From a virus: a DNA stretch of 64,000 nucleotides. Positions within the stretch are counted from its first letter, which is position 1; each line of letters opens with the position of its first letter. Shown here piece by piece: positions 59,911-62,388 of the stretch. Under the pieces are notes generated by a model. That model had not been told where the DNA came from, ran no database searches, and saw nothing but the letters and a program-made list of their open reading frames with translations. A program made the position numbers and the translations under genes. The stretch lies in the IMG/VR virus record IMGVR_UViG_3300045988_155139, one strand, 5' to 3'.

Positions 59911-60087
59911 ATGTGGACTTTATTCTCAATTGTTTTAACCCTATGGATTTTTAGCAAATTAGTTCTTAACATCTTTGAAATTTTTGTTAGATGCGAAGAA
60001 AGAGCTGCACATCTTAAATGGTCAAAAGATTTACAAAATGAAATAGCCTCTACCAAAGGTGAAATTTCAGAAAAAGATGAAGATTAG
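59911..60087 (+). CDS. small membrane protein upstream of flotillin
   Basis: 58 aa ORF not in track; GGAGGAAAACACA RBS; one TM helix (LFSIVLTLWIF). Confidence 0.4.
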   Translation: MWTLFSIVLTLWIFSKLVLNIFEIFVRCEERAAHLKWSKDLQNEIASTKGEISEKDED

Positions 60088-60115
60088 AAAATTAAAATAA
60101 AGGAGAAAGATTTTT

Positions 60116-61582
60116 ATGTTAACAGGAATAATTATTGGAATAGTTGTAATTATATTGATACTATTTGTTTTGATGAGTTATGTAAAATGCCCACCAGACA
60201 TGGTTTATTTAATATCAGGGCTAAGAAAAGAACCAAGAGTAATAATTGGAAAAGCTACTCTTAGAATTCCATTTTTTGAAAGAGTAGACAAATTGACATT
60301 GGAACTAATACAAATTGATGTCAGAACATCACAAGTCCCAACGGCAGACTTTATCAATGTGGATGTTGACGCTGTAGCAAATGTCAGAATACCTAATAAT
60401 GCTGAACTTATACAAGTTGCAGCTAGACACTTTTTAAACCAAGAAGCTAGTTATATCTCTAGAAATGTTCAACAAGTTTTAGAGGGAAATATGAGAGAAA
60501 TAATTGGACAAATGAACCTAGTTGATTTAGTAAACAATAAGCAAATGTTCTCAACCCAAATTCAAGAGAATGCCAAGGATGATATTCAAAACATTGGTTT
60601 AGAGATTGTTAACTTGAATGTACAATCTTGCACAGATGAAAATAATGCTATAAACGACTTGGGTATTGACAATTTATCTAAAATTCAAAAAAGTGCAAAA
60701 ATTGCTAAAGCTGAAGCAGAAAAAGAGATTAAAATTGCTGAGTCTGTAGCAGATGAAGAAGGAGCTAAAGCCAGAGCTGAAGCAGATGCCAAAATCGCTG
60801 AACAACAAAAGAATTTGGAAATCAAGAAAGCACAATTTAAGATTGAGCAAGATAAAAAGAAAGCAGAAGCTGATGCAGCATACTCTATCCAAGAAGCAGA
60901 ACAAAGAAAAACTGTAAATGAAGCAACTGTTGCAGCAGAAGTAGCTAAAGCTGAAAAGATGACAGAACTTAAAGAAAAAGAAGTAGCTCTTAAAGAGAAA
61001 GAACTAGATGCTTTGGTAAGAAAACAAGCAGATGCTGAAAAATATAAAATTGAACAAGAAGCAGAAGCCCAAAAATTAGCAAGAATTCAAAAAGCTGAAG
61101 CTGAGGCCAAAGAAGCAGAATATCAGGCTAAAGCCAGAATTGAGATTGCCAAAGCCAATAAACAAGCTGCTGAATTGGATGCAGCCGGAATAAAAGCTAA
61201 AGCTTTAGCAGAAGCTGATGGAAAAAAAGCTATGTTATTGGCAGAAGCTGAAGGTATTAAACAAAAAGCATTGGCTGAGGCTGAGGGTATTGAGAAGAAA
61301 GCTGAAGCTCAAGCCAAAATGAAAGAAGCTTCAATCATTGAGATGATATGTCAAGCATTACCAGGAATTGCCAAAGAAGTATCAGCACCATTAAGCAATG
61401 TAGACAGTATCACAATGTATGGTGACCAATCAACAGAATTGATAGAAAATAATACACAAAAAATAGATAAAATCTTAAAAGTAGCACAAGACTCATTAGG
61501 GTTAGATTTAAAATCAATGATAACTGGATTTGCAGCTAAAACACTAATTGACGACCATAAGGAGAACAATGACCAAGACTAA
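60116..61582 (+). CDS. flotillin-like SPFH/band-7 protein
   Basis: N-terminal TM helix, SPFH-like core (VYLISGLRKEPRVIIGKATLRIPFFERV...), long coiled coil with A/E/K repeats (KAEAEKEIKIAE...) typical of YqiK/FloA-type flotillins. Confidence 0.65.
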   Translation: MLTGIIIGIVVIILILFVLMSYVKCPPDMVYLISGLRKEPRVIIGKATLRIPFFERVDKLTLELIQIDVRTSQVPTADFINVDVDAVANVRIPNNAELIQVAARHFLNQEASYISRNVQQVLEGNMREIIGQMNLVDLVNNKQMFSTQIQENAKDDIQNIGLEIVNLNVQSCTDENNAINDLGIDNLSKIQKSAKIAKAEAEKEIKIAESVADEEGAKARAEADAKIAEQQKNLEIKKAQFKIEQDKKKAEADAAYSIQEAEQRKTVNEATVAAEVAKAEKMTELKEKEVALKEKELDALVRKQADAEKYKIEQEAEAQKLARIQKAEAEAKEAEYQAKARIEIAKANKQAAELDAAGIKAKALAEADGKKAMLLAEAEGIKQKALAEAEGIEKKAEAQAKMKEASIIEMICQALPGIAKEVSAPLSNVDSITMYGDQSTELIENNTQKIDKILKVAQDSLGLDLKSMITGFAAKTLIDDHKENNDQD

Positions 61583-61760
61583 TTGGCAATTATGTCAGTC
61601 ACTAGATGGAACCTGGTGGTATCAGGATTTAATGACCGGAGCAAAATTACCACCAGGTCTTAAAAATATTTGCAATTTTCCAGAAGGTTTTAAAACTATA
61701 AAAATACCTAAAATCGAGTTAAGTTCTATTAAAAATAAGGAGGAAAAGAATGGAAATTAA
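61548..61760 (+). CDS. hypothetical protein
   Basis: 70 aa. Confidence 0.4.
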   Translation: MTTIRRTMTKTNWQLCQSLDGTWWYQDLMTGAKLPPGLKNICNFPEGFKTIKIPKIELSSIKNKEEKNGN

Positions 61761-62388
61761 AAGATATACGGATGAGGAATTTTTCAATTGTAAATTGAGG
61801 GGAGCAAACAATGTAGTAAAAGCAGTCTTTGGGGAGAATGAAAAGTTCAAGAATATTCCACCCAGTGTACTAGAAAATGCAGCAAAAAGAGGTACAGCTG
61901 TTCATAAATGTATCGAAGATTATATGAATAGTCTAAAATCTGGAAAACCTCAAGAACCAACCATTCCGTTGGAATATGACATATATCTACATTATTTCAA
62001 TGAGTGGAGAAAAGAGAGAGCAACGATAGAAAGAGTATATGAAACAGAATGCAAAATTATCTCAGAAGAATTAGCATGTAAAGGAATTATAGACTGTATT
62101 GCCAAAATAAAAACAGATGTAGATGATGAGTCTAAAATATGTATGATAGATTGGAAAACTTCTAGTGGATTAGACATGTTCAGAACACAATGCCAATTAC
62201 AATTATACTATGAAATGATGATGGAAGAATACCCAGATATATGCAAAGAAATCCAAGAACTAAGAGTTTTGAGTCTAACAAAAAGAGAATATCGATGGTT
62301 CAAATTCCCTATAGATAGGAGTTTGGGTCAAAGTATTTTATATCTTTATAAAAACTATTTCAGAGAAGAAGCGGAGAGGAGAAAATAG
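61750..62388 (+). CDS. PD-(D/E)xK nuclease-like protein
   Basis: IDCIAKI...ICMIDWKTSSG resembles the (D/E)xK core of RecB/Cas4-family nucleases; 212 aa. Confidence 0.4.
   Translation: MEIKRYTDEEFFNCKLRGANNVVKAVFGENEKFKNIPPSVLENAAKRGTAVHKCIEDYMNSLKSGKPQEPTIPLEYDIYLHYFNEWRKERATIERVYETECKIISEELACKGIIDCIAKIKTDVDDESKICMIDWKTSSGLDMFRTQCQLQLYYEMMMEEYPDICKEIQELRVLSLTKREYRWFKFPIDRSLGQSILYLYKNYFREEAERRK

Follow-up and report, generated by a model that had tools for sequence, protein, structure and literature searches.

A flotillin of the FloT/flotillin-1 type in a human gut phage belongs to a phage-specific clade carried by at least five tailed-phage backbones

Introduction

What does a phage do with a flotillin, and does it use the protein together with the genes beside it? 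The question is raised by IMG/VR virus record IMGVR_UViG_3300045988_155139, of which a stretch of 64,000 nucleotides (the window) was analysed, and in particular by the open reading frame (ORF) at 60116-61582. An initial annotation had proposed that this ORF encodes a flotillin, a protein rarely seen in phage genomes, and that it forms a module with a small single-transmembrane (TM) protein encoded upstream and a PD-(D/E)xK nuclease encoded two genes downstream, possibly as a captured defence island. The function of bacterial flotillins is itself debated, and scaffolding, fluidity control and stress protection have all been proposed. We describe here the protein, its relatives and its genomic settings, and we are very confident of three points taken jointly: the gene encodes a flotillin, this flotillin belongs to a phage-specific clade, and the gene has the status of a stand-alone accessory. 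As a protein it is unremarkable within a known family; the novelty lies in the clade, which is specific to phages and mobile between them.

Results

The product of 60116-61582 is a complete flotillin

The 488-aa product is a complete and genuine flotillin of the FloT/flotillin-1 type, encoded by a phage, and the architecture first proposed for it holds in every part: a TM helix, a Band_7 domain, a helical region rich in Ala, Glu and Lys and a Flot domain were all found (Table 1). Residues 2-21 are modelled as a helix by AlphaFold2 (AF2; predicted local distance difference test, pLDDT, 82-88), with a Kyte-Doolittle (KD) 19-mer mean of 3.29; Lys and Arg residues follow, so that by the positive-inside rule the SPFH domain and the coiled coil are predicted to be cytoplasmic. 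The Band_7 match (PF01145) scores 78.3 bits against a cutoff of 23.6 bits, and the domain keeps the 32 residues that are universally conserved in flotillins. The SPFH core of the model superposes on the Band-7 domain of mouse flotillin-2 (1win) with a TM-score (TMt) of 0.78 and a root-mean-square deviation of 2.1 Å. The AF2 run used a shallow alignment (74-94% identity), and the model is usable for secondary structure and for the SPFH core, not for helix packing.

Beyond the SPFH domain, residues 206-400 consist of 26% Ala, 18% Glu and 17% Lys; AF2 places helices at 178-268 and 295-404, and the region aligns continuously with flotillin-1 up to residue 321. An unusually long CC1 helix (~190 residues) after the SPFH domain is a flotillin hallmark and forms the wall of the flotillin dome (PMC13000311), to which residues ~206-400 are equivalent. 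The Flot domain (PF15975) scores 35.1 bits against a cutoff of 27 bits. Here residues 376-438 align with residues 322-384 of flotillin-1, including the stretch ...LPxIAxEVSxPL...ITMYG, and the domain is equivalent to the CC2/CTD (C-terminal domain) roof region that closes the oligomer.

Comparisons over the whole protein agree with the assignment by domains. The NCBIfam FloT model (NF058507) matches at E 2.9e-78 over nearly its full length (41-473 against 52-476 of 477 positions), and the best solved relative by sequence is human flotillin-1 (E 3.3e-55; residues 23-339 and 376-438), with flotillin-2 also matching. The top four Foldseek matches of the model are chains of the flotillin complex (E about 5e-22), and the 59 positions conserved across all flotillins compared are retained. 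A phage coiled-coil structural protein, the alternative raised at the outset, is excluded: the protein has an SPFH core, and its gene is not part of the structural module. Membership of the HflK/C type is likewise excluded, since flotillins match better by 30 or more orders of magnitude.

Relation to known SPFH proteins

The closest well-studied counterpart is FloT (YuaG) of Bacillus subtilis, the protein of model NF058507, which has the same domain order and a similar length. With 264 bits against the 700-bit equivalog cutoff of that model, the phage protein is FloT-like rather than a FloT orthologue, and it further differs from B. subtilis FloT in being phage-encoded, in having no NfeD-like (YuaF-type) neighbour and in belonging to a separate clade that is about 50% identical at most to cellular proteins. 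The human flotillin-1/flotillin-2 dome (PDB 9bq2, 9l3g) aligns in all of its parts (SPFH1/2, CC1 and CC2/CTD, down to the C-terminal strand region by which the dome is closed), but identity is about 28%, and the phage protein has a true TM helix where the human proteins have acylation or a hairpin. The regulatory Tyr160 of flotillin-1 aligns with an Asn. There is a single phage flotillin gene, so any cage would be homo-oligomeric, unlike the flotillin-1/flotillin-2 complex.

HflK/HflC and QmcA-YbbJ of Escherichia coli share the SPFH superfamily and the principle of cage formation, and are among the fold matches. Their similarity is much lower (QmcA, E 2.6e-5) and their coiled coils are shorter; their partner proteins, FtsH and NfeD, are not encoded at the phage flotillin locus. 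HflK/C has historically been linked to phage lambda through FtsH and CII. Another phage-encoded SPFH protein is the phrog_200 "lipoprotein" of large phages; it is the sole PHROG match of the flotillin, but only residues 2-236 are matched, and weakly (E 9.3e-11), and phrog_200 has neither the flotillin coiled coil nor the Flot domain. PHROGs v4 holds no family for full-length phage flotillins. Phage SPFH proteins are mentioned in passing, and left unexplained, in genome papers (PMC13239085, PMC13384950), and a literature search found no study of the function of a phage-encoded flotillin. Two papers that came up were set aside: the "Perkons" paper describes a prophage that integrates into host floA, and a marine structural-variant paper deals with a flotillin-associated rhodopsin.

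Five phage backbones have the flotillin in common

Flotillin is a stand-alone accessory gene, carried by at least five unrelated tailed-phage backbones from gut and rumen. The flanks of the 28 loci compared fall into five groups that have only the flotillin, and occasionally also a dUTPase, in common: group A (the window, L001 and L016), group B (L002-004, L020-023 and L025), group C (L009-015, L017-019 and L028), group D (L005-007) and group E (L008). Clear phage genes are present in every sampled context. Groups B and C are phages of 100-145 kb with a T4-type portal, prohead protease, Pol III alpha, NrdD, ThyX, dUTPase, SpoVG, peptide deformylase and a sigma factor; phage genes also flank the flotillin in groups D and E, and the genes seen in the sampled contexts also include a head-tail adaptor, an RNA ligase and a Sak4-like annealing protein. 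None of the proteins looked up was read on a contig of >200 kb. Outside group A the flotillin is adjoined by soluble enzymes or by small non-hydrophobic ORFs, and near it the small TM ORF and the window-type nuclease are both missing in all four of these backbones. Among the relatives of the window phage, on the other hand, the flotillin itself is missing from L031 and 12 others.

The remark that flotillins are rarely seen in phage genomes is borne out for deposited records, of which 7 of 50,697 match (several of them short or unverified, and one annotated as "flotillin family protein"); the record MT835492.1 (hit H3) is without annotation. It does not extend to uncultured gut and rumen phages, in which the phage flotillin clade comprises >120 distinct clusters at 90% identity. 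In the best 120 of these clusters identity is 74% or more throughout, and both Pfam domains are always present.

Several features of these contexts were observed in passing. The dUTPase, the only other gene sometimes common to groups B and C, is adjacent to the flotillin or within two genes of it in L004, L009, L012-L014, L017, L020, L022 and L052, and in group B a phage SpoVG homologue lies immediately upstream of the flotillin. Genes resembling UDP-glucose/GDP-mannose dehydrogenases occur at or near the flotillin in two unrelated backbones (L052:11469-12236 and L006:10118-10861), and are another envelope-related auxiliary gene in these phages. In group C, NrdD is split into two ORFs by a NUMOD3/I-HmuI-like homing endonuclease gene (L017:1039-4221, also L019), which suggests an intron or an interruption by a mobile element. 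Contigs of 66-132 kb are deposited as metagenome-assembled genomes (MAGs) of Clostridia, Bacilli and Erysipelotrichaceae (L018, GCA_017623075.1; L022/L025, RGIG2316 and RGIG2240; L023, RUG12194); their flanks are the same as those of IMG/VR phage contigs and phage hallmark genes are present, and they look like phage genomes binned as bacteria.

The phage flotillins form a clade under constraint

The flotillins of groups A-E form one clade on a long stem, 64-95% identical among themselves and 42-52% identical to everything else; the evidence is a neighbour-joining tree without support values together with an identity matrix, and the identities agree with the tree. An exhaustive search covered 1.8 billion representatives, and the closest full-length proteins that are not members of the clade reached about 50% identity at most. 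The nearest sister, P0122 (48-52%), is chromosomal (L050), as are P0132 (47%), which adjoins SecA, a ribosome hibernation factor and DAHP synthase, and L026 (46%), which adjoins glutamine synthetase III and peptidase U32. P0128 (48%) lies on another phage-like contig (L046:1-15789), beside a microbial PARG-like (poly-ADP-ribose glycohydrolase) gene, SSB and NUDIX; its presence on a separate phage-like contig points to a probable independent acquisition, so that flotillins would have entered phages more than once. As a side observation from the single locus concerned, genes for a response regulator, an ABC-transporter ATPase and a histidine kinase directly precede that of P0122 (L050:2485-6058), an arrangement typical of modules that sense envelope stress or antimicrobial peptides.

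Within the clade, the tree conflicts with the backbone groups, which indicates that the gene moves between phages. The flotillin of L023 (group B) groups with those of D and E at 80-83% identity, that of L017 (group C) groups with A and B, and that of L008 (group E) is 95% identical to that of L006 (group D). The window's own flotillin is nearer to group B (82%) than to that of its relative L016 (78%).

The gene is kept by strong purifying selection. Against 12 phage homologues its dN/dS is 0.06-0.13, with dS >1.2 and synonymous sites saturated, and none of the 24 loci has a broken reading frame. The protein is about 90% identical in L001, where the neighbours are 51-91% identical and only g56897 is marginally higher, and about 77% identical in L016, where it is the highest of the region and the neighbours reach 39-73%. 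Its GC content, GC at third codon positions (GC3) and codon usage are the same as in the phage core genes. Low dN/dS, phage-like composition and the conflicting tree together imply that the gene is old in phages, functional and repeatedly exchanged. Recent capture from a host is excluded by the saturated synonymous sites, the ameliorated codon usage and the identity of <=52% to cellular proteins. Only 21 positions are specific to the clade, and 12 of these lie in the SPFH domain.

These data also dispose of the suspicion that the gene might stem from chimeric assembly with host DNA, or be a decaying passenger derived from a host, for which the chance is negligible. Flotillins are overwhelmingly cellular, and some of the homologues are labelled as bacterial MAGs; however, the latter contigs are phage genomes of 100-145 kb, an identical protein occurs on four contigs (one from a human gut metagenome, the longest recorded being 66 kb) with the same phage context in the three places compared, and a frame intact in 24 of 24 loci, with dN/dS about 0.1 and fully ameliorated composition, is not that of a decaying gene.

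The nuclease is a backbone recombination gene

The nuclease two genes downstream is real: the 212-aa protein matches PDDEXK_1 above the cutoff (E 4.1e-7; 30.6 bits against 22 bits) and phrog_298, "exonuclease" (E 1.4e-20), and contains the core ...ICMIDWKTS.... Fifteen homologues, the most distant 47% identical, all share residues H52, E56, D115, D134-W-K136 and Q149..Y153. Of the two families initially suggested for it, RecB and Cas4, only the first applies: the domain is RecB-like, and the only Cys residues invariant in the same 15 homologues are C116 and C148, so the protein has no Cas4-type four-Cys Fe-S cluster and is not Cas4 proper. It resembles the RecB-like exonucleases of phage recombination modules (phrog_298; Cas4-like/MGME1-like) in D115, D134-x-K136, QxxxY, the PDDEXK_1 domain and the pairing with a Sak4-like protein; the absence of the four-Cys cluster sets it apart from Cas4. 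A sequence search of the PDB found no significant solved relative, the sub-threshold matches being MGME1 (E 0.17) and a spurious p300. In the fusion profile phrog_8097 (nuclease plus Sak4), the N-terminal part matches the nuclease and the C-terminal part the window's Sak4-like single-stranded DNA (ssDNA)-annealing protein, which points to a two-component recombination system in which the latter is the probable working partner of the nuclease.

The proposal that the small TM protein, the flotillin and the nuclease act jointly in membrane remodelling or defence, possibly as a captured island, must be judged against this background. In its favour, the genes run in one direction, closely spaced and uninterrupted by a terminator, and the order of small ORF, flotillin and nuclease is kept in L001 and L016. 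However, 13 related viral contigs (L031 and 12 more distant) have the nuclease without the flotillin, the 58-aa ORF or the 63-aa ORF, and the four other backbones have the flotillin without the nuclease or the small ORF. In L031, the closest relative without a flotillin, the nuclease is 66% and the DUF7694 protein 61% identical to those of the window, and two unrelated ORFs occupy the place of the flotillin block. Because these 13 relatives keep the nuclease without the flotillin, we regard the nuclease as a backbone recombination gene that is not functionally tied to the flotillin, its fusion profile pairing it instead with the Sak4-like protein. Moreover, a further small TM ORF lies before the flotillin in both L001 and L016 and is missing from the window (see below). 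A search of PADLOC-DB v2 gave zero matches at E <= 0.01 for the 8 proteins spanning 59181-63818; the idea of a captured defence island finds no footing there, nor in composition and codon usage, which match the phage core genes. Joint action of the three genes is thus highly improbable. The initial annotation had itself held that absence or unlinking of the block in related phages would tell against it, and this is what was found for the block, though not for the flotillin.

The small ORFs are lineage-specific

The small single-TM ORF upstream of the flotillin is present as first described. Its 58-aa product has one moderately hydrophobic N-terminal segment (KD 2.04) and a charged helical tail, and positional homologues are found only in L001 and L016; these share an N-terminal MW-LF-I-L-L but are 45% and 23% identical, respectively, where the flotillin keeps 89% and 78%. 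The ORF is a lineage-specific, fast-evolving neighbour. The 63-aa ORF between flotillin and nuclease is 55% (L001) and 41% (L016) identical, carries the motif WWY..TGxKLPP..IKIP, co-occurs with the flotillin only in the window's lineage and is missing from the relatives that have no flotillin. A second small TM ORF lies between the 58-aa homologue and the flotillin in L001 (L001:5758-5979, 73 aa) and L016 (L016:5727-5978, 83 aa), with the conserved motif TTQDEETLEYIN. The window has only a 28-nt gap at this place (60088-60115), having either lost this ORF or never had it.

Searches of PHROGs, Pfam and NCBIfam returned nothing meaningful for the 58-aa ORF, the 63-aa ORF or the extra small TM ORFs of L001 and L016. 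NfeD in particular has no Pfam match on the adjacent ORFs, and in three phage lineages the precomputed Pfam calls show none up to 8-10 kb to either side; the 58-aa ORF is too short for an OB-fold. Since the small ORFs and the flotillin occur together only in three closely related phages, common descent is inseparable here from functional linkage.

Layout of the locus and of the window

The window comes from a tailed phage of ~66 kb from a human gut metagenome. Its GC content is ~33%, 92 of its 98 ORFs share one strand, and it encodes a DNA polymerase, primase, large terminase, portal, major head protein, tape-measure protein and endolysin, as well as a helicase, DNA ligase, dCMP deaminase, thymidylate synthase, Sak4-like annealing protein and HNH endonuclease. 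No integrase was found among the window ORFs screened, and a megablast of 58000-64000 against the 50,697 phage records gave no match. The flotillin occupies a variable slot of the early/middle region of replication and nucleotide metabolism (helicase, ligase, dCMP deaminase), outside the lysis and structural modules and ~32 kb from the endolysin.

Four tightly packed ORFs make up the 59.9-62.4 kb block, with the coordinates that had been given for them (Table 1), and those of 58, 488 and 212 aa have strong Shine-Dalgarno sequences. The third ORF probably starts at ATG 61569, 5 nt past AAGGAGA, which gives 63 aa, as does an independent metagenome gene call. No terminator-like sites were found at 58.5-63.9 kb, and the best sigma-70-like site follows the nuclease; the four genes are therefore probably co-transcribed with upstream genes. 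This site probably marks the start of the next transcription unit, an indication that is only suggestive: promoter-like sites are not commoner in the region than in shuffled sequences.

Table 1. Features of the window discussed in the text, with their positions in the 64,000-nt stretch. RBS, ribosome-binding site.
Feature	Position	Strand	Basis or remark
Small single-TM ORF, 58 aa	59911-60087	+	Strong RBS; KD 2.04
Flotillin, FloT/flotillin-1 type, 488 aa	60116-61582	+	Pfam, NCBIfam, PDB, Foldseek
N-terminal TM anchor, residues 2-21	60119-60178	+	KD 19-mer mean 3.29; AF2 helix
SPFH/Band_7 domain, residues 49-203	60260-60724	+	PF01145, E 9.5e-22
Long Ala/Glu/Lys-rich helical region, residues ~206-400	60731-61315	+	Composition, AF2, flotillin-1 alignment
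C-terminal Flot domain, residues 365-435	61208-61420	+	PF15975, E 1.6e-8
63-aa ORF	61569-61760	+	Listed as 61548-61760, 70 aa from TTG 61548
RecB-like PD-(D/E)xK exonuclease, 212 aa	61750-62388	+	PDDEXK_1, phrog_298, conserved motifs
Best sigma-70-like site	62466-62494	+	11/12 matches with extended TG; in 137-nt gap after nuclease
Sak4-like ssDNA-annealing protein	5817-6551	+	phrog_124, E 9.5e-32
tRNA cluster, seven genes (Met, Thr, Cys, Gln, Trp, Tyr, Ser)	23190-24050		
Endolysin	26858-27940		
DUF7694 protein	58023-58490		Pfam E 2.4e-22; phrog_7839
285-aa ORF after nuclease	62525-63382		N-terminal CxxC...CxxC zinc-ribbon-like motif; no family match
ORF following the 285-aa ORF	63300-63818		phrog_8582, unknown function

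A few further observations concern the surroundings. The DUF7694 protein is kept in all close relatives, and with it the variable slot of the flotillin block is bounded on the upstream side. The 285-aa ORF is also conserved in relatives, but lies there on the opposite side of the nuclease. The ORF that follows it overlaps it, as listed, by about 80 nt, and its true start is therefore probably further downstream. The window has a single GC-rich stretch (41% against about 32%), and the tRNA cluster falls on it.

Discussion

The reading we prefer, with a probability of about 50%, is that the phage supplies a flotillin scaffold that would maintain or reorganise host membrane microdomains during infection. 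The flotillin would be made during infection and inserted into the host cytoplasmic membrane by its N-terminal helix, with the SPFH domains on the inner leaflet; the CC1 helices and the Flot domain would then drive homo-oligomerisation to dome- or cage-like assemblies, as in flotillin-1/2 and HflK/C. Such assemblies may partition microdomains and keep the membrane fluid and organised, and energisation, secretion and wall synthesis would persist until programmed lysis. A phage that redirects host gene expression may benefit from a flotillin copy of its own, and would be bringing an envelope-stress protein that a Firmicute host would normally induce by itself on infection. In B. subtilis, floA and floT are regulated by sigma-W, which is triggered by membrane stress including phage infection (PMC8581546). 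Bacterial flotillins control membrane fluidity and support wall synthesis (PMC7360373), and the flotillin dome, a 44-mer of SPFH1/2, CC1, CC2 and CTD, delimits a patch of membrane (PMC13000311). The neighbours in the large phages (peptide deformylase, SpoVG, ThyX and dUTPase) fit with preservation of the membrane.

Four points weigh against this reading. A partner of the NfeD type was not found near the phage flotillin, unlike in many bacterial SPFH operons; the AF2 monomer has only modest confidence (pLDDT 61.5); the 12 of 21 clade-specific residues that fall in the SPFH domain could mean an altered specificity for clients or lipids rather than generic housekeeping; and a generic benefit of maintenance does not obviously explain why the clade is distinct, or why closely related phages do without the flotillin.

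The last two points lead to the main rival of membrane maintenance, a client-sequestering cage, in which the domes would enclose a specific host membrane protein, FtsH or a membrane-embedded abortive-infection effector, and neutralise or activate it. The solved structures of HflK/C, which is among the fold matches, enclose FtsH, and sequestration of membrane proteins has been proposed for the flotillin dome (PMC13000311). The long stem of the clade, the concentration of its substitutions in a membrane-proximal domain and its spread over unrelated phages, typical of counter-defence genes, would suit such a function. Even so, we consider it rather unlikely, since there is no identifiable client, no conserved adjoining partner gene in any lineage, no PADLOC similarity to known defence or anti-defence families, and the generic features of flotillins are retained overall. 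In its strongest form, which we think unlikely, the proposal is that phage flotillins are a dedicated viral membrane-cage device, whose homo-oligomeric domes would trap or insulate host membrane proteins such as FtsH or pore-forming abortive-infection effectors; if so, the protein would be a tool of counter-defence or host takeover and not simply a replacement of host flotillin.

Two further explanations are less likely than the client-sequestering cage. In superinfection exclusion, early expression would alter the membrane so that DNA injection by later phages fails, and a membrane-anchored protein encoded in the early/middle region, with an accessory distribution among close relatives typical of exclusion genes, could be so employed. 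To our knowledge, however, exclusion is the work of small membrane proteins or lipoproteins and not of scaffolds of 480 aa. The bulk of the flotillin is predicted to be cytoplasmic, the carriers look virulent (replication genes of their own, and no integrase among the ORFs screened), and very high conservation in the face of presumably different competitors fits a housekeeping type of constraint better; exclusion is accordingly quite unlikely. The other explanation is control of lysis timing, in which the flotillin would stabilise or repair the membrane against premature holin triggering, or tune holin rafts, and so set the latent period. DynA, a membrane-remodelling host protein genetically linked to flotillin, changes lysis after phage infection (PMC8844932), and flotillins modulate fluidity (PMC7360373). 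Yet in the window the gene is far from the endolysin, in no lineage is it in a lysis cassette, and its neighbours are dUTPase, SpoVG, ThyX and peptide deformylase, all of which makes a role in lysis timing very unlikely.

The findings bear on several matters. For annotation, they mean that contigs of 100-145 kb labelled as "Clostridia", "Bacilli" or "Erysipelotrichaceae" MAGs that carry the phage flotillin gene are phage genomes, and that gene adjacency in a single phage is a poor guide to functional modules. For the study of flotillins, the phage protein would offer a compact, partner-free version. For phage biology, a flotillin clade that is constrained and exchanged between phage lineages implies that flotillin activity affects the outcome of infection, and membrane organisation would join the host functions that phages carry as auxiliary genes.

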